Below are positions 1,663 through 50,565 of a stretch of DNA of 64,000 bases, one piece after another. Source of the DNA: an uncultured Planctomycetia bacterium. Its GTDB lineage: Bacteria; Planctomycetota; JAKEIC01; CAZDSO01. Location: positions 746 to 64,745 of the forward strand of contig CAZDSO010000001.1 in NCBI GenBank assembly GCA_964508045.1, in the 5' to 3' direction. A program made the position numbers and the translations under genes. The notes under the pieces are model-generated. The model did no database searches and was not told the origin of the DNA. It worked only from the letters and a program-made list of their open reading frames with translations. The stretch's first letter is position 1, and the number at the start of each line of letters is the position of its first letter.

Positions 1663-4600
1663 ATGCCTCGCCCCGAAGACCGGCTTGTCGGGATGATCCT
1701 CAACGGCCGCTACCGCGTGCAGGAGCGACTCGGCACCGGCGGCATGGCCTCCGTCTATCGCGTCCACGACGAGCTCGAAGACCGCGCCGCCTGCCTCAAG
1801 GTCCTCTTCGAGGGCGGGGACGACTCGGTCGAGCGGGAACTCCTCGTCCAGGAGTTCCGCACCCTCAAGGGACTCAAGCACCCCAACCTCGAGGAAGTCT
1901 ACGACTTCGGCCGCCTCGAGGGCGAAGACGCCCACTTCTTCTCCAATGAGCTCGTCGACGGCGCCGACCTCGGCGCCGCCTCGAAGGACCTCGACTTCGG
2001 GGCGCTCACCGAATGCCTCGTGCAGATCTGCCGCGCCCTCCAGTACATCCACTCTCGTGGGCTCGTCCATCTCGACATCAAGCCCGAGAACATCCTCGTC
2101 CGGCGAGGCCCCGAGGGAGATCCCCAGGTCAAGATCATCGACTTCGGCCTGGTCTCGAAACGGGACAATCCCCTCGGGGAGGAAATCCGCGGAACCCTCG
2201 CCTACGTGGCCCCGGAGATCCTCCGAGGCGAGGCGTCCGACCACCGCGCGGACCTCTATTCCCTCGGCGTCACCCTCTACCGCCTCCTCTCCGGCGGTGA
2301 GCACCCCTTCTCCGCGAAGTCGGACGTCGAGTCCGTCCTCCAGCGGTTCTCCCGGCAGGTCGACGCGCCCGTCTCCCCCCTCGGCGACATCCCCCCCTAT
2401 CTCGTCCGCGTCACGCTCCGGCTGCTCGAGGCCTCTCCGGAAAACCGGTATCCCGACGCCAACGCCATCATCGAGGACATCCGGCGCGCCACCCGAAAAC
2501 CCTACCCCCTCGAAACCGAGGAAAGCCGGGAAGGACGCGTCCTCTCCGGGCGCTTCGTCGGACGCGAACAGGAGATGGAAACCGTCACAACCCTCCTGGA
2601 CGAGGCCGCCGGCCGCGGCGCGCGGAAGCACGTCCTGATCACCGGCGAGGCCGGCGCCGGCAAGACCCGCTTCCTCCGCGAGATCGCCGTCCGCGCCCAG
2701 GTCGCGGGCCAGCGCGTATTCCGCGGAACCGCCCCGAAACGCGGCGCCGGCGCCTACGCCCACCTCGCCGGCGTCCTCACGGAACTCGTCCTCACCCTCG
2801 GCCGGGAACACCCCCGGGTCCGCGAACACGGCCCCCCCCTCGCCCGCATCCTGCCGGCACGCCTCGGGCTCGGCGATCCCCCGCCCCCGCTGGAAGGGCG
2901 CGCCGAGAGCATCCGCATCGCGGACGCGGCGAGCCGGCTGGTGCTCGGCTTCGCGCGCGGAAAACCGACGGTGGTCCTGCTGGACGATCTGGACCGCGCG
3001 GACCCCGGCACGGCGGACGCGCTGGCCTATCTGGTCCGGTCCACCCCCGCCTCCGGCGACGGCGCGCCGTCGCTGCTCGTCGTCGCGACGATCCGGGAAA
3101 CGGGTAGGAAGGAAGGCCCCGCTTCCCGCCTGTTCGGGGCGACCGAGACGAAGGCGGAATGGACGGAGGTCCCGCTCGGCCCCCTGGACGAGACGGCCGT
3201 GCAGGATCTCCTGGAGTCCATGTTCGGGGCCGGGGAGGTTCCGGATACGTTCCTCGAGCGGATCTTCGCGGCGAGCCGGGGCAACCCCCTTTTCCTGGAA
3301 GAGGCCGTCAGACTCCTCGCGGCGCGGGGGGATCTCCGCTGGACGGGCCGCCGGTGGGCATTTCCGGCGAGACCGGAGTCGGTGTCCATCCCGGAGAATC
3401 TCGAGGAGATCTTCGATCAATCGTTGCGGGACGTCGAGGAGGAGGACCGCGGGATCCTGGAAGCGATGGCGGTCTGGGGAAGGCCGGCCGGGGTGCGCGC
3501 GCTCCAGGCGACGCTGGGCGGGCGGTCTCTCGCGTCGGCCGCGGCCTCCCTGGCCAGGCTGCACGGCCGGGATCTGGCGGAACGAATGGACGAGGCGTCC
3601 GGGGCGCGCTGGCGGGTTCGGGGAAGCCTTTTCGAGGCGTACCTCTACGGCCGGATCCCGGCGGACGAGAAGAAGCGTCTCCACGGCCGGGCGGGGGCCT
3701 TTCTCGAGGAGCAGGGCGCGGAAGGCGCGCATGCGCTGGCGGAGGTGTCCCGTCATCTCCTCGCGGGAGGTCGGGGAGCGCAGGGCGTGGAGCGCGCGCT
3801 GGAGGCGGGCCGGAGGTTTCTGGACGTGGCGCAGTTCGACCGGGGCATCACGGTGTTGAAGCTGGCGGAAGAGGAAACGGGGGAGGCCGATGCTGCGACG
3901 CTCTCGGCGCTGCACTCGCTGGCGGGGAAGTGCCGGATGTACTCGGGGGACATGCCCGGCGCGCTGGAAGCGTTCCGGAAGGCGGATCGGCACCTGGAGA
4001 GGCAGGGGGCAAAAGCGCGAAAGGAGAGGCTCGAGATCCTCATCCACATCGGGGACATCCTGCGCGTGCTGGGCAGGGAAGAAGAAGGTTTCCGCTTCCT
4101 GGAACGGAGCGAGGCGATCGCGGCGGAGACGGGGGATCCGCTGGACGCGGCCCGGATCCGGCTGCACAAGGGAAACCGGCTCTGCGTCACGGGCCGGGTG
4201 GCCGAGGGGTTTCGGATCCTCGAGGAGGCGATCGGGGACCACGAGGCCCTCCTCGAACTCAACGAGGGCGCCGTCGCCAGCCTCCACCTGGCCAACCGCG
4301 AGGCGCGCCGCGGGGATCTCGCCAAGGCGGAGACCTGGCTCGCCGTCTCGGAACGGTACGCCCGCCGGCGGGGATCGAAGCACGGTCTTGTGATCGCCGA
4401 GCGGTACCGGGGCTACTGGGCCATGGAGGCGGGCCGGCTGGAGGAAGCGCGGAAACACCTCGAGGCGGCGCTCGCGCTCGTGCGCGAGATCGGCCACCGG
4501 AAGGAGGAAGGGTTCACGCTCGAGCCGCTGGTGAACGTGAACCTCGAGCTGGGGCGCTACGAGGAGGCGGAACGGCTGGTCCAGGAGGGGATGGCGACCT

Positions 4601-7866: not shown

Positions 7867-7883
7867 TTGGCATGAATGGTGCT
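7867..7883 (+). promoter_or_regulatory. candidate sigma-54 (-24/-12) promoter
   Basis: TTGGCATGAATGGTGCT has GG(7869-70)-N10-GC(7881-82) spacing, matching TGGCAC-N5-TTGCW at most positions. It lies about 40 nt upstream of the ATG at 7923, with GGAGG at 7911-7915, and follows an AT-rich tract. Confidence 0.5.
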
Positions 7884-7922: not shown

Positions 7923-9896
7923 ATGAACTCGAAACACGTTTGGATCGGCTCTCTCCTGGCCCTGTTCCTGTTCTTCACGGTCTCCTGCAAGAAGGAGGGG
8001 GTCGAGTTGACCTCCGTGACGGTCACGGGGGAGACGGAGGCGCTGGCGAAGGGGAAATCCCAGATCCTGGAAGCGGAAGGGACCTACAGCGACGGGACCA
8101 CGGCGACGATCGAGGTGAAGTGGAGCGTGTCGGATCCCTCGCTGGGCGAAATCCTCGCCGTTTCGGGGTCGCCGGAGAAGGCCGTTCTGCAAACGCTTGA
8201 GGAGGGGGAGTTGACGGTCCGGGCGGAAGCGAAGGAGGAGCCGGCGGTGAGCGCGTATTTCACCGTGACGGTGTTCGAGCCGGTGATGGAATCCATCGTG
8301 GTGTCGCCGGGATCTGCGAGCGTTCCCGAGGGCCTGACCGCGGCGTTTTCCGTGGAGGCCGAATACAGCGACGGGACGACGGCCCCGGTCTCCGTGGAAT
8401 GGTCCTCGAGCGACGAGGGGATCGCGACGGTGGACGGGACGGGCACCGTGACGACCGTTTCCCTGGGCGAGGCGACGATCACGGCGACGACCCTGGAAGA
8501 GCCGATCTTCTCGGACGCGGCGACGGTGACGGTGCTCGAGGCCGTTCCGGTGGGGCTTGCGGTCTCGCCCGCTTCCGCGTCGCTCGAGGAGGGCTGCACG
8601 CTGTCCTTCACGGCGTCGGTGAAGTACTCGGACGGATCCACGGGGGATCCGATCGAGGCGACGTGGACGAGCGCCGACGGGAACGTGGCGGTGATCGACG
8701 CCTCGGGCACGGCCACGGGCGTGGCGGCGGGCGTGGTGACCCTCACGGCCACGGCCGTCTCCGACGCGAGCCTTACGGGCGAGGCGGATCTGACGGTGGT
8801 GCCGGGTGTGGTGTCCATCTCGGTGACGCCGGGGACGGCGTCGGTGGTGCCGGGGAACACGCAGTCCTTCACGGCCACGGGGACGTACTCGGACCAGTCC
8901 ACGGCGCCCGTGGCGGTGACGTGGTCGAGCTCGAACACGACGGTGGCGACGATCGACGCCTCCGGCGTGGCGACGGGTCACACGAAGGGGACGGCGACGA
9001 TCACGGCGGCCTACCAGGCGAATCCGGGCGTGACGGGCTCCGCGACGCTGACGGTGGCCCCGTTCACCCGCATGTACATGAACAACAATCCCGACATCGA
9101 TTCGGTTCCCTTCACCGGCGGGTCCGGCCGGAACGACTACGTGGCTTCGACGCGCGTCCGCAGCATCCTGGTGAGCCGGGACAAGCAGACGCTCTACATG
9201 CTGGACGGGAACGGGGCGCTGTACGGCCTGGATCTCACCACGTATCAGCTGCAGACCCTGATCGCTTCGAGCTCGCCCCTGCTCCGCCAGGCCCTGAGCA
9301 TCGACGCGCAGGGGAACCTCTTCGCGGCGGGCTACAGCTACGTCAACAGCACGAACATGTACTCCGTCGAGAAGATCGACCCTTCCACCTGGACGGTCTC
9401 CACCTTCAGCCCCCTGGGGAACTCGACCTGCTATCACGACACCCTTCCCATGAACGGCGACGTCTACGTCGCGACCTGGGGCGGGATCGCAAGGGCGTCC
9501 TCGGGCGCGGCACCCACGAACGTCTTCACGAGCGGCATGAACGTGTTCACCAGCATCGCGGCCGACGCCAACGGGGACCTGTACACCGTCGAGTTCTGGA
9601 ACAAGGACGTGTGGAAACTCACGGACCTGAACAGCGACGGCAACTATTACGGCATGGGCGAATCCGGCGTATTCAAGAACTACGGAATGCAGTGGATCTG
9701 CGAGGTGGAGATGGACGCCGAGGACAGCCTCTACGTGGCCGAGCTGCAACAGGACGCCTCGAATCCCTCCCACGGCATCTGGAAGCTCCGGGATCTGAAC
9801 AACGACGGAGACGCCGTGGACGCCGGCGAGGGCTCGATCTGGTGCACGCGACCCTACCTCTCGGGCTGGGGCGGCGGCGGCATGAGCTTCAAGTAG
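7923..9896 (+). CDS. lipoprotein with four Big_2 (bacterial Ig-like) repeats and a C-terminal NHL/beta-propeller-like domain
   Basis: Lipobox signal MNSKHVWIGSLLALFLFFTVSC. Four ~85-aa repeats of the form V.P..A.v..G.t..ftA...YSDGtt..v...W.SS. The C-terminal half has repeated D.(Q/N)G(N/D)L(F/Y) blade-like motifs. Confidence 0.85.
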   Translation: MNSKHVWIGSLLALFLFFTVSCKKEGVELTSVTVTGETEALAKGKSQILEAEGTYSDGTTATIEVKWSVSDPSLGEILAVSGSPEKAVLQTLEEGELTVRAEAKEEPAVSAYFTVTVFEPVMESIVVSPGSASVPEGLTAAFSVEAEYSDGTTAPVSVEWSSSDEGIATVDGTGTVTTVSLGEATITATTLEEPIFSDAATVTVLEAVPVGLAVSPASASLEEGCTLSFTASVKYSDGSTGDPIEATWTSADGNVAVIDASGTATGVAAGVVTLTATAVSDASLTGEADLTVVPGVVSISVTPGTASVVPGNTQSFTATGTYSDQSTAPVAVTWSSSNTTVATIDASGVATGHTKGTATITAAYQANPGVTGSATLTVAPFTRMYMNNNPDIDSVPFTGGSGRNDYVASTRVRSILVSRDKQTLYMLDGNGALYGLDLTTYQLQTLIASSSPLLRQALSIDAQGNLFAAGYSYVNSTNMYSVEKIDPSTWTVSTFSPLGNSTCYHDTLPMNGDVYVATWGGIARASSGAAPTNVFTSGMNVFTSIAADANGDLYTVEFWNKDVWKLTDLNSDGNYYGMGESGVFKNYGMQWICEVEMDAEDSLYVAELQQDASNPSHGIWKLRDLNNDGDAVDAGEGSIWCTRPYLSGWGGGGMSFK

Positions 9897-19528: not shown

Positions 19529-20932
19529 TCACGGCGAAGGCGCGGGCTCGCGCAGGCAGGTCCAGAGCAGCGGGATCATGATCTCGTGGTGGCCGGTGAG
19601 CTCGATGCCCTCCGCGTCCGGCCGGTCCAAGACGTTCACCTTCGGGCGGTAGTGCCGGATCATGTCCAGGTTCGCCGTGGTGGTTCCCGAGATCGGCCCG
19701 TAGAGGTTGGTCGCGAGGTTCAGGGCCTTGAGGAAGACCTCGGGCAGGATCACGGCCGAGCCGACGTTCACCCACACCCCCCCCTTCGAGAGGCGGGGAA
19801 GGGCCTCGACGAGGCGGTGGAAGTCGATCTCCGACGCGCGCCCCAGCGCCCGCCCGCTGTGCCCCGGATGCATGGCCGTGATCTCCGCGCCCGGCGCCGG
19901 GAAGACGCAGACCGGCACTCCCTTCTCGCGGGCCCGCGCGAGCACGCTGTGTTCCCGGTGCGGCAGGTCCTTCTCCAGGATGTAGGCGCCCGCCGCGCGG
20001 CCGAGCCCGGGGCCCGCGGCCCCGGCCTCGACGATCTCGGCGAAGGCGTCGCCCGTTTCCCGGGCCATGCCAAAGGCGCCCTCGCCGAGGCTTCCGGCCA
20101 CGTCCTCGGAGGTGCGCCCGCAGAGGGCGATTTCCAGGTCGTGGATGGGAACGGCCCCGTTGCAGGCCAAAAGCGAGATCCAGCCCTCGTCGATCATCGC
20201 CCTGAGGTAGGGCGCGAGGCCCACCTTCACGGTGTGGCCGCCCAGCGCCCAGCCGAGCAGCCGTCCCGCATCCCGGGCGCGCCGAAGGGCCTTCACGAGC
20301 CGCTTGAGCCCCTTCGCGGCCAGGACGTCCGGGAGGTGTTCGAGAAACCGCGCGCCCGCGAAGGCGCCCGGCTCCGGCAGGACGGGGAAATCCTCGACGG
20401 AGACGAGGCTTTTCCTGTCGCCCAGGGCGTAGCGTTTCGGCCCGGCGATCCACGACAGCAGGGCCGGCCCCGCTCCGACGTCGAACACGGCCGCCAGGCC
20501 CGCGCGCCTTCCCGCTTCCAGGTCGGAATCCGCGTCGCCGACGAGGGCGGAGCGGGACGGGTCGAGGTCCAGATCGTCGAGGGCCTGCAACAGCATCCCG
20601 GGCTCGGGTTTCCGGCAGGAGCAGGGGGCGCCGTCCGGCGGGGGGAAGTCCGGGTGGTGCGGGCAGTGGTAGAAGGCGTCGAGGGGGGCCTGCCGCTCAT
20701 CGAAGTCCCGCCGCACCCGCTCGTTGACGGCGCGGACGTCCGCTTCCGTGTACATCCCCCGCGCCACGCCGGACTGGTTGCTGACGACGACCGTGGAAAA
20801 CCCCGCCTTCTTCGCGGCGCGGACCCACGACACGGCCTCGGGGCGGACGCGGACCTTTCCAGGGTCGGACAGGTACGCCTCGTTCTCGATCAGCGTCCCG
20901 TCGCGGTCGAAGAAGACGGCTTTTCCGGGCAT
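19529..20932 (-). CDS. gmhB: D,D-heptose 1,7-bisphosphate phosphatase (HAD) fused to a deoxyhypusine-synthase-like domain
   Basis: The ATG at 20932 gives MPGKAVFFDRDGTL (DxDGT), then VVSNQSGVARG, CSCRKPEPGM and GDADSDLEAG, which are GmhB motifs. The C-terminal ~290 aa (GLAPYLRAMIDEGWISLLACNGAVPIHDLE...GVWVNVGSAVILPE) resembles DHS-like NAD-binding proteins. Confidence 0.8.
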   Translation of the reverse strand: MPGKAVFFDRDGTLIENEAYLSDPGKVRVRPEAVSWVRAAKKAGFSTVVVSNQSGVARGMYTEADVRAVNERVRRDFDERQAPLDAFYHCPHHPDFPPPDGAPCSCRKPEPGMLLQALDDLDLDPSRSALVGDADSDLEAGRRAGLAAVFDVGAGPALLSWIAGPKRYALGDRKSLVSVEDFPVLPEPGAFAGARFLEHLPDVLAAKGLKRLVKALRRARDAGRLLGWALGGHTVKVGLAPYLRAMIDEGWISLLACNGAVPIHDLEIALCGRTSEDVAGSLGEGAFGMARETGDAFAEIVEAGAAGPGLGRAAGAYILEKDLPHREHSVLARAREKGVPVCVFPAPGAEITAMHPGHSGRALGRASEIDFHRLVEALPRLSKGGVWVNVGSAVILPEVFLKALNLATNLYGPISGTTTANLDMIRHYRPKVNVLDRPDAEGIELTGHHEIMIPLLWTCLREPAPSP

Positions 20933-21085
20933 GGGTCTCCCGCCAGACGCCCTCGGGTTGCAAGACAAGCCGATTCGAGCCGTTCGTGGTGCAGGCACGT
21001 CATGGCCCTCTCTTCCTTACGAACGTCAGCCCTCGCCCCATAAGAACGGCCACAGCACGAATGGCTCGATTCCGGTTCGGTCCCC

Positions 21086-31230: not shown

Positions 31231-32049
31231 CTACATGCCGCCGACGCTCATCCAGTGGCCCAGTCCCCCCGAGAGAAGCGGGAGGAGACCGAGGCCCAGG
31301 ACGAGAAGCGCCGCGATCTTGTCGTACTTGTCCCCGTGGAAGAAGAAGAGGATCAGCCCCGCCAACATCATCAAGATGCCGAGGTGGGCCGCGTAGAAGC
31401 GCGTCATCGCCCAGTTGCCGACGTCGTCCTTCGCGTCCGCGAGCGATCTCCCCGCCTCGGCCAGGTCGGTTTGATGCTCATGGACCCACCGGTTCCATTC
31501 CTCCTTCTCCTCCAGGTAGTCCTTGAACGCCTCGCTCTCGGTGTACTTCTCCACAGCCTCCTGGTATTCCTCGTTGAACTCCTCCTGTTCCTCGTTCCGC
31601 TCCTTCGCATCGAGCTTGACGGATTGCTTCTTGTAGGGCTCGGGGGGCGGAACGGGTTTGTTGCTCTGGCCCTGGTAGTACGTCTGAAGCGCGTCGTACT
31701 TCAGCTTCCAATGGCCGTGGCTCTTGTGCGCGCAGGTGGCCAGGAAAAACAGGGAGATGCCCGCCACGAAGAGGATCCGGCCGATCTTGAGATAATCGGC
31801 GGGCTCCTTCGGCTTCGCCGGAGCCTTCTTCTCCTTCGCCTTCGGCTCGGCCTTCGCGGAAGCCTTCTCCTCTTTCTTCGCTTCCGGAGGTTTCGCGGCC
31901 TTTTCCTCCTCTTCTTCCTCTTCCTCGTCTTCTTCCTCCTCGTCCTCCTCCTCCTCCTCCTCCTCCTCCTCCTCTTCCCATTCCTCTTCCTCTTCCTCGG
32001 GTGCCTCGGAGCTCCTGCCCCGTTCCGGATCGCTCAACGGATCTCTCAT
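31231..32049 (-). CDS. membrane protein with extreme poly-Glu/Asp N-terminal tract
   Basis: The ATG at 32049 has an AAGGAG RBS. The sequence begins MRDPLSDPERGRSSEAPEEEEEEWEEEEEEEEEEEDEEEEDEEEEEEEEK, followed by a K/A/E/P-rich linker. One TM segment is ILFVAGISLFFLATCA and two C-terminal TM segments are present (HLGILMMLAGLILFFF, ALLVLGLGLLPLL). Confidence 0.65.
   Translation of the reverse strand: MRDPLSDPERGRSSEAPEEEEEEWEEEEEEEEEEEDEEEEDEEEEEEEEKAAKPPEAKKEEKASAKAEPKAKEKKAPAKPKEPADYLKIGRILFVAGISLFFLATCAHKSHGHWKLKYDALQTYYQGQSNKPVPPPEPYKKQSVKLDAKERNEEQEEFNEEYQEAVEKYTESEAFKDYLEEKEEWNRWVHEHQTDLAEAGRSLADAKDDVGNWAMTRFYAAHLGILMMLAGLILFFFHGDKYDKIAALLVLGLGLLPLLSGGLGHWMSVGGM
31944..31973. repeat. trinucleotide simple-sequence tract (CCT)n, encoding poly-Glu on the minus strand
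   Basis: Uninterrupted cctcctcctcctcctcctcctcctcctc run inside a longer CTC/TTC-rich segment (about 31860-31990). Confidence 0.8.
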
Positions 32050-32136
32050 GTCTCCACTCCTTTCCTTGCCCTCGAAAGGTCCAACGATTCCCGGAAACGC
32101 CAGTCCGCATCCTACCCGAGAGAGCAGGAAGGGCGC

Positions 32137-32169
32137 AAAAAAAAATTCCACCGTCAAAGACGGTGGAAT
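32137..32169 (-). terminator. strong intrinsic terminator (minus strand)
   Basis: Perfect 11-bp stem attccaccgtc/gacggtggaat with a 3-nt loop. On the minus strand it is followed by eight U (plus-strand A run 32137-32144). It lies 387 nt downstream of the smpB stop. Confidence 0.7.
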
Positions 32170-32445
32170 GGCGGGTTGATGGGTCGGACATGGATCCCCC
32201 CCATTGACCCATGACCGTCGCCGGCCACAAGCCGGTTCCCACCAACGCCTCTTTACGAAAGATGCAAAGCCCGTACCATTCCCACGATTCCCCGAAAACG
32301 GCCCAGGCTCCGTTTCTCCATGGGAAGCAAGGACGTTTCGGCGCCGGCGCGATCCCGAATCCGGCCCGTGCACAGACACTAGCTATCACAAGTTAACAAA
32401 ATCGGGGGAAACCGGATACTTGCTTACCTGCCAGGGAACGGCGCC

Positions 32446-33238: not shown

Positions 33239-33322
33239 GCGGCTGTGGCGGAATTGGCAGACGCGCAAGATTCAGGATCTTGTGAGCTTCGGCTCATGGG
33301 GGTTCAACTCCCCCCAGCCGCA
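33239..33322 (+). tRNA. tRNA-Leu (anticodon CAG)
   Basis: Hand-folded. Acceptor gcggctg/cagccgc. D arm gcg-gaattggcaga-cgc. Anticodon stem caaga/tcttg with loop ttCAGga. Long variable arm gagc-ttcg-gctc. T arm ggggg-ttcaact-ccccc. Discriminator A. CCA is not encoded. Confidence 0.93.
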
Positions 33323-45146: not shown

Positions 45147-46355
45147 CTAGGCCTTGACGTCGACTTCGAGAACCATCGCGGCCCCCGTGTCGCCGGCGGC
45201 GCAGCCGTCGAAGAGGCCATAACCGCCGCCGCGAAGGGCGAGTTCCTCGATGAGCTCGATGATCAGGCGCGTGCCCGTCGGCCCCTGGGGGTGGCCGTAG
45301 ATCATGGAGGACCCGTAGTTGTTCATGGCCTCCGGCTTGACGCCGAACTCGCGGCAGAACAGGACGTCGTTCACGGCGAAGGGATTGTGGGTCTTGATGG
45401 CCTTGACATCCTTGATGTCGAGGCCCGCCCGCTTCAGCGCCTGCCGGCCGGCGGGAAGGATCGCCATCGCCATGAACCCCTTCTTCGCGCGGCCCTCGCC
45501 GTAGGAAACGATCTTCACCTCGATGTTCTTGTCCGACGACATCTCCGCGGCCTTCCCGCGCGTCGTGACCACCACCCCCGCGTTCGCGTCCGCAGGGTAC
45601 GTCTGGCTGCCGAACGTGATCGTCCCGCCCTTCAGCACGGGCCTGAGCTTCTTCAACCCCTCCTCCGTGGTGGGAAAGACCCCCTCGTCCCCGTCCACCG
45701 TGCCGATCACCTTGCGGCCCGAAGGATTGACCTCGACGGGGAGGATCATGTACCGCTTCTGGAACGCCTTGTCGTCCTTCAGGGCCTCCTGGTACTGGTT
45801 GTAGCGGAGCAGCGTCATCGCGTCCTGCTCCTCCCGCGTGATGCCCACCTCCCCTGCCACGTTCTCCCCCGTCTGGATCATCGCGTTCTTGGCGAACGGA
45901 TCGTACCCGAAGTTGTCCCACACCCAGTCCTCCTTGTCGCCCGTCCCCCCCGGACCCATCGGATTCGGATAGTAGATGTGGGGACCGTTGCTGCACTTGT
46001 CCGTCGTCGCGACGAGGACGCATTCCCGCGATTCCATATCGATCTCCTGCGCGGCGGCGTCCAGGCAGCGGGCGCCGGTGGCGCAGGCCTGGCCGATCAT
46101 CGGGGCCGTGATCTCCCCCGCGCCGATGAGCCCCGTGTACCACGGACCGCCGTAGAACAGGTGCTTCTGCGGAATCGTGATGCCGAGAACGGCCCCGTCG
46201 AAGGCCTCCACGGCGATCTTGCGCTCCTCGAAAAAACGCTTCGTGATCTCCGCCGCGAACGGGATGGGATGGAGGGGCGCGAAGCTCATCTGCCACTTGC
46301 AGAACGGCGTGCTCCAGTACGCCCCGTAGGGAATGTAGGATTTCTCGAATCTCAT
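45147..46355 (-). CDS. thiolase-family protein (divergent acetyl-CoA acyltransferase-like)
   Basis: IGQACATGARCL (active-site Cys), GHPQGPTGTRL, GCAAGDTGAAMVLEV. Confidence 0.85.
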   Translation of the reverse strand: MRFEKSYIPYGAYWSTPFCKWQMSFAPLHPIPFAAEITKRFFEERKIAVEAFDGAVLGITIPQKHLFYGGPWYTGLIGAGEITAPMIGQACATGARCLDAAAQEIDMESRECVLVATTDKCSNGPHIYYPNPMGPGGTGDKEDWVWDNFGYDPFAKNAMIQTGENVAGEVGITREEQDAMTLLRYNQYQEALKDDKAFQKRYMILPVEVNPSGRKVIGTVDGDEGVFPTTEEGLKKLRPVLKGGTITFGSQTYPADANAGVVVTTRGKAAEMSSDKNIEVKIVSYGEGRAKKGFMAMAILPAGRQALKRAGLDIKDVKAIKTHNPFAVNDVLFCREFGVKPEAMNNYGSSMIYGHPQGPTGTRLIIELIEELALRGGGYGLFDGCAAGDTGAAMVLEVDVKA

Positions 46356-46450
46356 GGCTTCCTCCCAATGACGCTCGTCTTCATCGCCGATGGTGTATCC
46401 GAATCACGGCGCTTTGACAACAGAAATCCCGAAGACCCACGCGCCCGGCC

Positions 46451-48136
46451 TCACTTCGACTTGCCCCCGGGCCCCCCCTCGATCCCGTAGTCCTTCAGCT
46501 TCCGCCACAGCGTGTTCACGCCGATCCCGAGCGCCTTCGCCGTGTTCTGGCGGTGCCCCTCGAAACGGTCCAGAACACTCAAGATGTGGCGCCGTTCCAC
46601 ATCCCGGAGAGCCACGGCCTCCTCCGACGATTCGTCCGAGCGGCGGGCGCCTCCACGCGACACGTCGATGGGGAGATCCTCCTTCCGGACCCGGTCCCCC
46701 GCAGTGAGCACCACCGCTCTCTCCAGGATGTTCTCCAACTCCCGCACGTTGCCCGGCCAGTCGTAGAGAGCCAGCGCCTTCAGCGCCTCGGGGCTCAGCG
46801 TGTTCACCTTCTTCCCCGTGCTGTGGGAAAACCGCGTCAGGAAGTGCCGGGCCAGGGGAACGATGTCCTCCCGGCGTTCCCGCAACGGCGGCACCACGAT
46901 GGGGAACACCTTCAACCGGTAGTAGAGATCCTCGCGAAACGTGCCGTCGGCGACCATCCGGTCGAGGTCCTGGTTCGTCGCCGCGATGATCCGGACGTTG
47001 ACCGGCGTGCCCCGGTTGCCCCCCACCGGCCGGACCTCCTTCTCCTGGATCACCCGCAGCAGTTTCACCTGCGTGGCGGGCGACATGTCCCCGATCTCGT
47101 CCAGAAGGATCGTCCCCCGGTGCGCCGCCTCGAACAGCCCCTTCCGTCCCTCCACCGCCCCCGTGAAGGAACCCTTCACATGACCGAACAGCTCGCTCTC
47201 CAGGAGCGTCTCCGGGAGGGCGCTGCAGTTCACGGCCACGAAGGGGGCCCTGGCGCGTCCGGAATACTCGTGGATCAGCCGGGCGAAGAGCTCCTTCCCC
47301 GTTCCGCTCTCCCCGACCAGAAGGACGGTGGCGTCCGCCACGGCGACCTGCAGCGCCAGCTTCAGACACTGCTCCATCGGCTTCGAGCTGCCGATGATCC
47401 CCACGCGCCGGGCCATGGCATAGACGTCCATCTGGCCTCCCGCGCGCTCCTCCTCCGTCGGAGCGCCCGGCTGGGAAGGGAGGTTCCCCATCTTGGAAAG
47501 GTCGTCCCCCATGTCGGGAAACCGGAGCAGATCGAGGTCCTCCTGGGCCTCCTCTCCCCACTCCGAGGCGGGTTTTCCCGAGAAACGGCACGTCTCCGCC
47601 CGGCCCGTGGCGATGCATTCGGTTTCGCGGACCAGGACCTCCTTCCCCCACCAGGCCGAGCCGAAGCCGCTGAGATAGCCGGAAAGGAGCCAGCAGACCT
47701 GGGCCGGCGCCGTTCCCAGAAAATGCTGGTGCCACAGCGCTTCCCAGGAATTCTTCCAGGACCCCTCGAGGACGAGCTCGCCCTTCTCGCGGTCGAAGGT
47801 GAACGCATCCAGGGAAACCCGCGCGATCCCCTTGAAGGAGAGGAAACGGACGCCTCCCCGGAAGAGATCCTCCTCGGATTCCCAGGTGTATCCCTTTCTC
47901 AGGGACTGGCAGTCCGTGTAGCCGGCCGAGAAGCCGAGCCGAAGAAGGCAGGCCTTCGTCCGTTGCCATCCGAGGCCGCGAACGAGTTCCCGGTGCAGGA
48001 TCCCGAGAAACCCCTCGTCCGCGATCACCTGTCTCCGGTCGTAGAACCGGATCGCCATCTCCTCGGGATCGAAGGTGAGCAGATCGAAGAAATTGATCTC
48101 GGACGCTCGCAAGGAGGGGTAGCCTTTGGTTTCCAT
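46451..48136 (-). CDS. sigma-54-dependent transcriptional activator with XylR_N/V4R-type sensor domain
   Basis: N-terminus [33 protein letters not shown]...[11 protein letters not shown] is XylR/DmpR-like. AAA+ core: [35 protein letters not shown]: [22 protein letters not shown]. Confidence 0.9.
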
Positions 48137-48271
48137 GATGGAAGCCTCACCATTCCAAAACGGGACCTTTCTTCCCGGTCCCGCAATGTAGCAAATCCAG
48201 TTGTTTTTTCAAGTGATTTCTAACTTGTTGATATATATGATATTAGATTTTCCATCCTTTTTCGATCCTGA

Positions 48272-48290
48272 TTGGGCATGCTTGTTGCTT
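48272..48290 (+). promoter_or_regulatory. candidate sigma-54 (-24/-12) promoter, divergent from the XylR-type activator gene
   Basis: TTGGGCATGCTTGTTGCTT has GG(48275-76)-N10-GC(48287-88), with GGCA at -24 and a perfect TTGCT at -12. It sits in an AT-rich intergenic region 136 nt from the activator start codon. Confidence 0.5.
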
Positions 48291-48299
48291 TATCAGTCC

Positions 48300-48557
48300 A
48301 GTGAAAACACGAAGCGAAGAAAGGACAAATGAAATACAAAGGAGCTTTGGTGGCGGCGCGGGGTTCGGGCCACAACTAGATACGATTCCGGCGGTTGTTG
48401 ACGATGCCTGGCTCTCCATCCATGATGCCGCCGGGTGCCCGAACCCTGCCGCTCTTTTTCGGGAGACGTTTTTTTCTGAACACGGGTTGAATTTGCAAAG
48501 CCCTCTCTTTTCGCCACGGCGGGGGAGCATTTCACGATGCCCCCCGCCCTATTTTTT
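48300..48557 (+). ncRNA. candidate sigma-54-dependent small RNA or leader (unclassified)
   Basis: The span runs from the predicted sigma-54 promoter to the intrinsic terminator. It contains a nested long stem-loop: 48358-48370 pairs with 48437-48449, and ccggcgg at 48388-94 pairs with ccgccgg at 48428-34. There is no convincing ORF, only a 16-codon micro-ORF at 48329-48379. No plus-strand gene lies downstream. Confidence 0.3.
48518..48557 (+). terminator. intrinsic terminator (plus strand)
   Basis: Stem ggcgggggagcat / atgccccccgcc (12 bp plus one bulged A) with loop ttcacg, followed by cta + TTTTTT (48552-57). The opposite strand has no U tract. Confidence 0.65.
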
Positions 48558-48717
48558 GGGTACCCTCACAAGGCGCATCACCGTCCCCCAGCGGGCAAAC
48601 AGCCGGATACGGCAAGTCCTTCGACCCTGTCAGAATAAGGTCATGTGAATCAGGCTCGAAAAGACTGCGCAGCACGGGAAGGGCTCTCGCGAAAACCTCA
48701 TGGAGAGATGCAGCGGT

Positions 48718-50565
48718 TCAGCGCGCCAGCGGGGCGGGAACCCTTTCCTCCGGGTTGTTCTGCCGGTCCTTCTGGTCCTGGTCCCCGCGATCCTTGTAGA
48801 TCATCAGGACCCTCGCCCGGGAAAGATTGGCGAAATGGGGTTCCTCGTAGGCTTTCCGTTTTGGAAGCTCCCGGTCCGGCTCCATGAATTCCACGAAGAC
48901 GCGGACCCCCGGCAGGAAGCGGAAATCCGCTTCCGACAGGGGGCCGGCGCGGGGATTCTTCATGGCCCGCTCGAACATCTGGTCGAACACCTTTCTCAAC
49001 ACGGGCCACTTCACGGCGTCCTCGAAGTAGATGAAGTCCACCTCGAGATCGGAGAGCATCTCGTGCAGGAACCGCCGGGTCCGAAGGCGCCACAGCTTGC
49101 GGAACGGCGGCCCGATGATGCGGGACTCCCCTTCCTCGCCCCCCTCGTCGTCGCGGTGCAGCCCTTCGATGAAGAAGAGATGCGGGCAGAGGAGAAAGCC
49201 GTTGCCGGCGCGAAAGGTCAGGCCGGACGCGATCTTCATGAGGCGCGACAGGCCCCGGTAGAAATCCCTCCGCTTGGTGATGAAGTCGAAATGGTCGAGC
49301 AGGAAGAGGCGTTCCCCGTCGGGGAGTCCCTCGAAGTTCCTCTTGAGGGAGGGCGCGGTCCCCTTCGCGCCGCGTCTTCCTTCCGGATCGTAGTCCAGGT
49401 CGGCCTTCTCGGCGCCGGGGGCTCTCGGGGAGGGGAGGAAGCGCCAGTCGCCGGGCGCGCGCCCCTCGAGGCGTCCCGGTTCGTGGCCCAGGGTCTTTCG
49501 TCTGGGCTTGCCGGGGTTGGCGAGGAACCACGCCGCATCCATCCACACGGCGTGAAAGGTGACCGGAAGAAGGAAGAGGAGGGAGACGAAGGCGGCGGCC
49601 CGGCCGAGGAGCACGGTCGCTTCCATCCCGGCCGGGGCTTCGGGAAGCGAGAGGGGAAGCTGCAAGGCGCCGGGAACGGCGCGGGCGCCGGCGGCGAGGC
49701 AGAGAAGGCACGTCACCCACAAGCAGGCGATCGCCATGACGGTGTGTTCCACGGAGACGATCCCCGTCCGCCGGACGGTACGCCGTTCGAGGTGGTGGAC
49801 CAGAAGGGCCGGGGCTTCTCCGGGGCGGGGGAGGGCGAGGAGAGCCAGATGGAGAAGGGTCAGGAAGACGCCCGCGGCGAAGAGGCCGCGCGGCCCGAAG
49901 AGGATCTCGAGTCCCGCCGCGCCCAGCAGGACGACGGCGCCCACGGCCAGCGCCTTGCGGGGAAGGCGCGGGTGGGCGCGGCGGACGGCGGGATTCTCGC
50001 GAAGGGCGGGCTCCTGGACGAGGGTCTGGAAGTAGAAGAAGGCCCCGGAGGCGGCGACCAGGATGGTCACGCCGAGGACCAGCCAGACGGCGCCGACCAG
50101 GAAGACGAAGAGGAGTCCGGAAAGCCGCCGGGATCCCTCGAGGAGGGCCGCGGGAAAGGGGGCGAAGGCGCAGGAAGCGGCGAGGAGCGCGAACAGGAGG
50201 ACGGCGATGCCCTGCAGCAGGCGGAATCGGGGCTCGCGGGCCGAGGGTCGGAAGTCGAGGCCGAAGCGGAAGTGGAACCGGCGCCGGAGCGCGCCCAGGG
50301 CGTCCTGGAATCCTTTCGCGACGGCGCCGGCGAGGGGGGCCGACGCCCGCCCGAAGAAGAAGGGCGTCCAGACGGCGGCCGCCACGGCGAAGACCAAAAA
50401 CCCCTGCCAGTCGGCCTCGACGGTGCGTCCGGAGGCCTCGACGGCCACGACCAGTCCGGCGGCGAGGGTGAGGTCGATCAGGAGCCCGCCGGTCCAGCGG
50501 GAGAGCCTGGTGAGTCGCCCGCGGTAGAGGCCGGGCAGGGTGGTTCGATGCGATCGCATACACAT
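48718..50565 (-). CDS. polytopic membrane protein with an uncharacterised ~270-aa C-terminal soluble domain
   Basis: 615-aa ORF. About 8-10 hydrophobic segments lie in the first ~340 aa. The C-terminal domain (LFLLDHFDFITKRRDFYRGL...FIYFEDAVKWPVLRKVFDQMFERA...) has no motif I recognise. Confidence 0.6.
   Translation of the reverse strand: MCMRSHRTTLPGLYRGRLTRLSRWTGGLLIDLTLAAGLVVAVEASGRTVEADWQGFLVFAVAAAVWTPFFFGRASAPLAGAVAKGFQDALGALRRRFHFRFGLDFRPSAREPRFRLLQGIAVLLFALLAASCAFAPFPAALLEGSRRLSGLLFVFLVGAVWLVLGVTILVAASGAFFYFQTLVQEPALRENPAVRRAHPRLPRKALAVGAVVLLGAAGLEILFGPRGLFAAGVFLTLLHLALLALPRPGEAPALLVHHLERRTVRRTGIVSVEHTVMAIACLWVTCLLCLAAGARAVPGALQLPLSLPEAPAGMEATVLLGRAAAFVSLLFLLPVTFHAVWMDAAWFLANPGKPRRKTLGHEPGRLEGRAPGDWRFLPSPRAPGAEKADLDYDPEGRRGAKGTAPSLKRNFEGLPDGERLFLLDHFDFITKRRDFYRGLSRLMKIASGLTFRAGNGFLLCPHLFFIEGLHRDDEGGEEGESRIIGPPFRKLWRLRTRRFLHEMLSDLEVDFIYFEDAVKWPVLRKVFDQMFERAMKNPRAGPLSEADFRFLPGVRVFVEFMEPDRELPKRKAYEEPHFANLSRARVLMIYKDRGDQDQKDRQNNPEERVPAPLAR

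Follow-up and report, generated by a model that had tools for sequence, protein, structure and literature searches.

The locus described here raises the question of what a sigma-54 enhancer-binding protein controls from the short stretch of DNA beside its own gene. In the window, by which we mean the whole 64-kb stretch of DNA that was analysed, base composition is 67.5% G+C. Between the activator gene (46451-48136, minus strand) and a gene for a 615-aa protein with no known Pfam domain (48718-50565), which converges on the locus, lies a gap of 581 bp and 51.8% G+C (48137-48717) that holds the candidate RNA gene. A sequence-only reading of this DNA had proposed a structured small RNA whose transcription depends on the adjacent activator. 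The computational checks that it suggested all favour this proposal, but the conserved core turns out to be a 29-nt block with the terminator, and not the long hairpin that the reading had described. Judged from these sequences, we consider it probable that the gap encodes a non-coding RNA that depends on sigma-54 and on the activator whose gene it adjoins.

The activator has the properties expected of such a regulator. Its ATG is present at 48136 on the minus strand, as had been claimed, and the encoded protein of 561 aa has the Pfam domain order XylR_N, V4R, AAA+ (Sigma54_activat) and HTH_8, the arrangement of the XylR/DmpR/MobR type. The Sigma54_activat domain (E = 9.9e-71) is an intact sigma-54 interaction domain, and the translation contains the Walker A motif GESGTGKE and the sigma-54 contact loop GSFTGA, a loop variant that occurs among functional activators (PMC4641369). 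The best NCBIfam match is to the MobR-type V4R family at 383.6 bits, well under the cut-off of 999, so the protein is not a MobR orthologue; its best protein matches come from MAGs named as Planctomycetota. A separate observation concerns the 5' untranslated region of the activator gene (48137-48160, minus strand), where a conserved hairpin surrounds the ribosome-binding site: the arms TGGAA and TTCCA enclose Shine-Dalgarno-like purines in a loop of 7-10 nt, and the ATG follows immediately after the stem. This hairpin is clear in five of the six loci compared, with a GGAG/CUCC variant in L003, and may be a translational control element.

We compared six distinct copies of the locus, all from metagenomes: that of the window (RNA at 48300-48557, plus strand) and those of L001 (5564-5823), L002 (632-885), L003 (4635-4794), L008 (2093-2278) and L012 (1-102), all five on the minus strand and the last ended by the contig edge before the T-run. 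Two further loci, L004 and L005, are identical to the window and hence are no distinct copies. The activator orthologues on metagenomic contigs are 63-68% identical (four with a scored protein); L008 was located by DNA pattern, in a 19-nt metagenome scan, and is not among these four. The lineages are well separated, the neighbouring 615-aa protein being 46-47% identical and the thiolase 78%. Five other 19-mer matches from metagenomes (L006, L007 and L009-L011) were rejected as chance, as they came without promoter or terminator. In reference genomes, neither the activator N-terminal domain nor a 20-nt piece of the block retrieved relatives; a separate protein search with the N-terminal domain was empty below 1e-30 despite the existence of full-length orthologues, which marks a limitation of the search and is not evidence. 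No such RNA was found near the distant V4R activators of L013-L015, L018 and L019, and a covariance-model search found no further copies in the window or the loci. Each locus has a single RNA copy, and the window contains no other; a dispersed repeat element was rejected when BLAST of the RNA against the window gave no repeats. One of the distant loci, L019, carries a one-mismatch match to the -24/-12 core, GGCACGGAATCTGC (3914-3927, minus strand), in which C replaces the first T of TTGC. The site diverges from the gene of a V4R activator paralogue and lies ahead of a gene for a 226-aa protein, which is the usual protein-coding layout, and the one-mismatch pattern occurs at chance frequency in that locus (7 matches against 7.4 expected).

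The proposed promoter element, TTGGGCATGCTTGTTGCTT at 48272-48290, fits 11 of the 13 specified positions of the extended sigma-54 consensus YTGGCACG-N4-TTGCW, as quoted in PMC3352281. Its GG (48275-76) and GC (48287-88) are separated by exactly 10 nt, in agreement with the sequence-only reading. Taken by itself this match is at chance level, since the exact core GGCAY-N5-TTGC occurs once in the window against 0.58 expected, and the consensus with up to two mismatches gives 12 matches against 12.0 expected. The case for a promoter is therefore made by comparison with the five other loci. Each of the six homologous loci has GGCAY-N5-TTGC, without change, in its -24/-12 element (GGGCATGCTTGTTGCT in the window, 48274-48289, plus strand). 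The element keeps its offset, its orientation divergent from the activator gene and its GG-N10-GC spacing throughout, while the sequences of the spacer and flanks differ; the L012 version reads GGGCAC-N5-TTGC. Upstream, at about -81 to -50 from the predicted start, an AT-rich box with dyad symmetry (48219-48250, no strand assigned) contains invariant alignment columns. The dyad takes the form TCTAA-N19-TTAGA in the window and TAATT-N15-AATTA in relatives and stands at the same offset in four of the six loci. As a candidate activator-binding site it is weakly defined. The box could bind the activator or IHF, or it could belong to the promoter of the activator gene itself.

Two other sigma-54-like sites were seen in the window. 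One, TGGCATGAATGGTGCT (7868-7883, plus strand), has the correct GG-N10-GC spacing and lies about 60 nt upstream of an ATG at 7944, in front of an open reading frame (7923-9896) whose protein has Big_2 domains. The other, TGGTACGGGCTTTGCA (32263-32278, minus strand), is the window's best match to the sigma-54 consensus, with one mismatch, and lies just within the 5' end of a predicted open reading frame without a Pfam domain (31231-32379), the start of which may therefore be miscalled.

With the 5' end placed 12 nt past the C of the -12 box and the 3' end at the T-run of the terminator, the predicted non-coding RNA spans 48300-48557 on the plus strand, about 258 nt. Predicted lengths in the other loci are 260 nt (L001), 254 nt (L002), 160 nt (L003), 186 nt (L008) and about 125 nt (L012), and the sequence between promoter and block is variable across all six. 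Beside these orthologous XylR/V4R activators, the -24/-12 element, the 3' module and the terminator have all been kept. The most striking part is a 29-nt block, AAAGCCCTCTCTTTTCGCCACGGCGGGGG (48497-48525, plus strand), which is 100% identical in the six loci although the neighbouring proteins are only 46-78% identical. Its first 21 nt are C/U-rich (AAAGCCCUCUCUUUUCGCCAC), and the remaining 8 nt supply the 5' arm of the terminator stem. The intrinsic terminator itself (48518-48557, plus strand) reads GGCGGGGG(A)GCAT, loop TTCACG, ATGCCCCCCGCC and then CTATTTTTT, and lies where the sequence-only reading had placed it. Its stem of 12 bp is interrupted by one bulged A and capped by a loop of 6 nt, and a T6 run follows. 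The lower stem and the T-run are invariant in all five complete copies, and the upper stem falls into three sequence types in which both sides change and pairing is kept. A simple terminator scan did not pick up this hairpin, probably because of the bulged A, and the opposite strand of the hairpin has no T-run.

The 5' part of the RNA behaves differently. In the window it contains a long hairpin (48350-48455, plus strand), whose two stems lie where the sequence-only reading had placed them: an outer stem of 13 pairs, one of them G-U (48358-70 with 48437-49), and an inner stem in which CCGGCGG (48388-94) pairs with CCGCCGG (48428-34). The T7 run that had been placed after it also exists, with the corrected coordinates 48469-48475 instead of 48470-76; it lies within the variable region and is no terminator. 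The long hairpin is present in the window, L001 and L002 and absent from L003, L008 and L012. In the three loci that have it, it shows compensatory changes, with double changes at five pairs (for example CCGGCGG/CCGCCGG to CCGGUGG/CCACCGG), and its apical region, CGATGCCTGGCTCTCCA at 48402-48418, is conserved. Folding of the RNA is moderately better than that of shuffled sequences (z = -2.75). Together with the rest of the 5' part, the long hairpin appears to be a fast-evolving accessory, and the functional core would be the 3' module.

On these computational grounds, the element can be described as a candidate trans-acting small RNA with its own promoter and its own intrinsic terminator, separate from any mRNA. 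Under the reading we favour, the single-component activator, with its XylR_N/V4R sensor, AAA+ and HTH domains, would bind a small-molecule signal and, once signal-bound, would assemble on the AT-rich region upstream of the promoter. By ATP hydrolysis it would open the sigma-54 holoenzyme complex at GGCAT-N5-TTGC (48275-48288), and transcription from near 48300 to the intrinsic terminator at 48518-48557 would yield an RNA of about 258 nt. The 21-nt C/U-rich stretch of this RNA would then most likely pair with purine-rich ribosome-binding regions of mRNAs from elsewhere and lower their translation. Pairing with ribosome-binding regions is suggested by the resemblance of the C/U-rich stretch to an anti-Shine-Dalgarno sequence, and the same invariant stretch, just ahead of the terminator, has the look of a seed, alone or together with a chaperone site. 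We advance seed pairing as a tentative mechanism, to which we give somewhat less than even chances. Accessibility predictions for the seed are mixed: its core CCCUCUCUUUU has a mean unpaired probability of 0.27-0.33 for the window and L001 and of 0.47-0.75 for the remaining four loci, and no intramolecular partner of the seed is conserved. Duplex scans of the 64-kb window and of the start regions of orthologous neighbour genes yielded no conserved target, and the seed showed only unremarkable pairing in the start regions of the activator, thiolase, 615-aa, 351-aa and cyclase genes. A wider proposal is that the RNA is the only direct target of the V4R/XylR-type activator, so that a signal would be converted into post-transcriptional control through an anti-Shine-Dalgarno mimic, in a self-contained cassette that has been moved or inverted as a unit in Planctomycetota; this we regard as possible but doubtful.

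The best target lead found in the window and the short contigs is AAGAGAGGGC (21005-21014, minus strand), where 10 nt match the invariant stretch of the RNA with perfect complementarity. A 2-hydroxyacid dehydrogenase gene and a HAD-hydrolase gene flank the site. The latter probably begins at the ATG at 20932, which puts the site about 73 nt upstream of this likely start. This is a weak lead and could be due to chance.

The alternative that survives best is that the RNA binds a protein instead of mRNAs, with a platform for a chaperone or translational regulator formed by the invariant C/U-rich block and, in the long forms, by the CUCUCC loop, in the manner of CrcZ or RsmZ. An invariance of 29 nt exceeds what most seeds need, the scans of the window and neighbour-gene starts gave no conserved mRNA target, and the long forms have a second conserved C/U-rich loop at 48402-48418. 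Moreover, Hfq classically binds a module in which a terminator follows a U-rich stretch. Known sponge RNAs, however, carry several repeats, whereas the short forms have a single copy of the motif, and the neighbourhood of the locus offers no candidate for a binding protein. We therefore consider a sequestering function unlikely, if still the strongest competitor of seed pairing.

Gene order bears on a different alternative, in which the element would act in cis on the thiolase operon, as its 5' leader or attenuator, with the order in L001 ancestral and the other arrangements relics of rearrangement. The 615-aa gene, the RNA convergent with it, the activator and the thiolase follow one another in this order in the window, L002 and L003; L008 has the same order as far as the activator, and in L012 the activator and thiolase are visible. 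L001 departs from this: activator and RNA, as a pair, sit in the reverse orientation with respect to the thiolase and 615-aa genes, so that the RNA faces the thiolase and the 615-aa gene comes after the activator. There, the element reads toward a thiolase start about 195 nt downstream, and a promoter followed by a terminator ahead of a gene resembles an attenuator. Against this, four of the five loci with a visible downstream side (window, L002, L003 and L008) have the element pointing away from the thiolase and converging on the 615-aa gene, and a relic would not remain 100% identical. The thiolase also has an upstream motif of its own in both arrangements: TTGTMA, a spacer of about 17 nt and TACACCATC, found at 46389-46420 (minus strand) before the gene at 45147-46355, and 35-50 nt before the start in the window, L001, L002 and L012. 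This motif may be the thiolase promoter or operator; in L001 its place is downstream of the RNA terminator and upstream of the thiolase. A -24/-12 site was sought upstream of the thiolase, and none was found. Since the thiolase keeps its own motif in both arrangements and has no -24/-12 site before it, the RNA is not a thiolase leader on this evidence, and we rate that explanation as very improbable.

The same comparison ties the RNA to the activator. Activator and RNA travel as a unit, as they were inverted together in L001 and kept together, and not with either neighbour. In L016, a thiolase operon with 72% identity lacks the activator and also lacks the RNA; the thiolase family is widespread in thiolase-based look-ups, one of which returned L017, a locus unrelated in context that was set aside. 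When L001 (4160-10156) is set against the window (45147-50565), the activator-RNA pair and the 615-aa gene are each reoriented relative to the thiolase and cyclase genes, and on sequence comparison at least two rearrangements are needed to explain the difference. A simple invertible switch is unsupported, as no inverted repeats flank the activator-RNA pair in the window.

It could also be argued that the promoter is incidental, and that the block and hairpin mark the 3' end or terminator of neighbouring genes, or serve as a site acting at the DNA level, with no sigma-54-dependent RNA. The chance-level match in the window would fit this explanation, as would the position of the hairpin in L002 and L003, where it abuts the stop codon of the convergent gene. 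It is at odds, however, with a -24/-12 core that stays invariant in six loci amid diverged flanks, with the presence of a T-run after the hairpin on the plus strand only, and with L001, where the 615-aa gene is not adjacent and no gene reads in from the other side. We give it the same slim chance as the thiolase leader.

Least probable of all is a small-protein mRNA or dual-function RNA translated from the micro-ORF, a 39-aa ORF of L001 or a 115-aa ORF: the 16-codon ORF of the window has a weak AAGGA upstream, the 39-codon ATG ORF of L001 has GGAGG upstream and the peptides DAWLS and PNPAALF recur in three loci, but the window and L001/L002 are put in different frames by a 4-nt indel, L002 lacks an ATG in that frame, the region is absent from L003, L008 and L012, substitutions are non-synonymous yet preserve base pairs, and there is neither GC3 bias nor a Pfam match. 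The micro-ORF is present at 48329-48379 as had been stated, with 16 codons and a stop, and neither it nor the 115-aa ORF proved to be conserved or coding-like. The 4-nt indel falls in the hairpin region, where it breaks the frame of the window relative to L001/L002. In every one of the three frames that cross the block, several loci show a stop 2-18 nt upstream and lack a start codon, and no frame has a start shared between loci. The terminators of the five complete copies measure 31, 33, 33, 34 and 33 nt, and such differences of 1-3 nt would shift any reading frame; the short L012 form contains no ATG or GTG. For the 115-aa ORF, G+C by codon position is 0.58/0.53/0.57, without the GC3 bias looked for (0.72-0.95 in predicted genes), and a Pfam search gave no match. 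As far as sequence comparison can tell, the region is non-coding and contains no conserved ORF.

The reading we favour, of an activator-dependent small RNA, places the locus among several known systems. The activator shares its architecture (XylR_N, V4R, AAA+, HTH_8) with XylR, DmpR and MobR. XylR and the Ps promoter of the TOL plasmid provide the model of a sigma-54 promoter divergent from the activator gene across a short shared control region, and the divergent sigma-54 layout is also found here. The promoters of XylR/Ps, DmpR and MobR, in contrast, control genes for catabolic or regulatory proteins; the product here would be a non-coding RNA.

A closer parallel in terms of output is found in Vibrio, where qrr1 lies directly upstream of luxO/vanO, the gene for its own sigma-54 activator (PMC3352281). 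In common with what is predicted here, the system of Qrr1 with LuxO/VanO has a -24/-12 promoter, an intrinsic terminator and a pairing region of high conservation (PMC3352281). It differs in that LuxO/VanO is a phosphorylated response regulator, while the activator here is a single-component V4R/XylR-type sensor, and in that the RNA described here is present in one copy per locus, has no sequence or structure match in Rfam and belongs to the phylum Planctomycetota. In Desulfovibrio vulgaris, the listed target of the activators DVU0653, DVU0679 and DVU2359, one of them single-component, is an adjacent ncRNA (PMC4641369). These pairs likewise combine a sigma-54 activator with an adjacent non-coding RNA, but they come from another phylum and have no detectable homology to the locus described here, where the sensor is XylR_N/V4R. 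GlmY/GlrR in Enterobacteriaceae (PMC3045617) and CrcZ/CbrB in Pseudomonas (PMC5113210) are further cases of sigma-54- and activator-dependent small RNAs beside regulator genes. What they have in common with our locus is the encoding of the RNA beside the gene of its regulator. GlmY and CrcZ act through protein mimicry or sequestration by way of repeated or structured motifs. Here, by contrast, the single C/U-rich stretch suggests base pairing, and there is no Rfam match.

The design of an activator with an adjacent sigma-54 small RNA is thus already known, and a literature search found no paper linking Planctomycetes or Planctomycetota with small RNAs and sigma-54. The locus would extend a layout known from Vibrio, enterobacteria, Pseudomonas and Desulfovibrio to a XylR/V4R-type small-molecule sensor and to a new phylum. 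It offers a testable candidate, with a defined promoter, a defined 3' end, a 21-nt candidate seed and a dedicated sensor-activator whose ligand can be sought. The candidate RNA itself belongs to a family absent from Rfam. The sequence-only reading could not assign it to a known family, and in our Rfam comparison no family fits: the RNA region gave no match at the gathering score and a single spurious lncRNA match at E values up to 10. An entry for a new RNA family could be started from our alignment and covariance model. Elsewhere in the window, an 84-nt tRNA gene (33239-33322, plus strand) is the sole match to Rfam at the gathering score.
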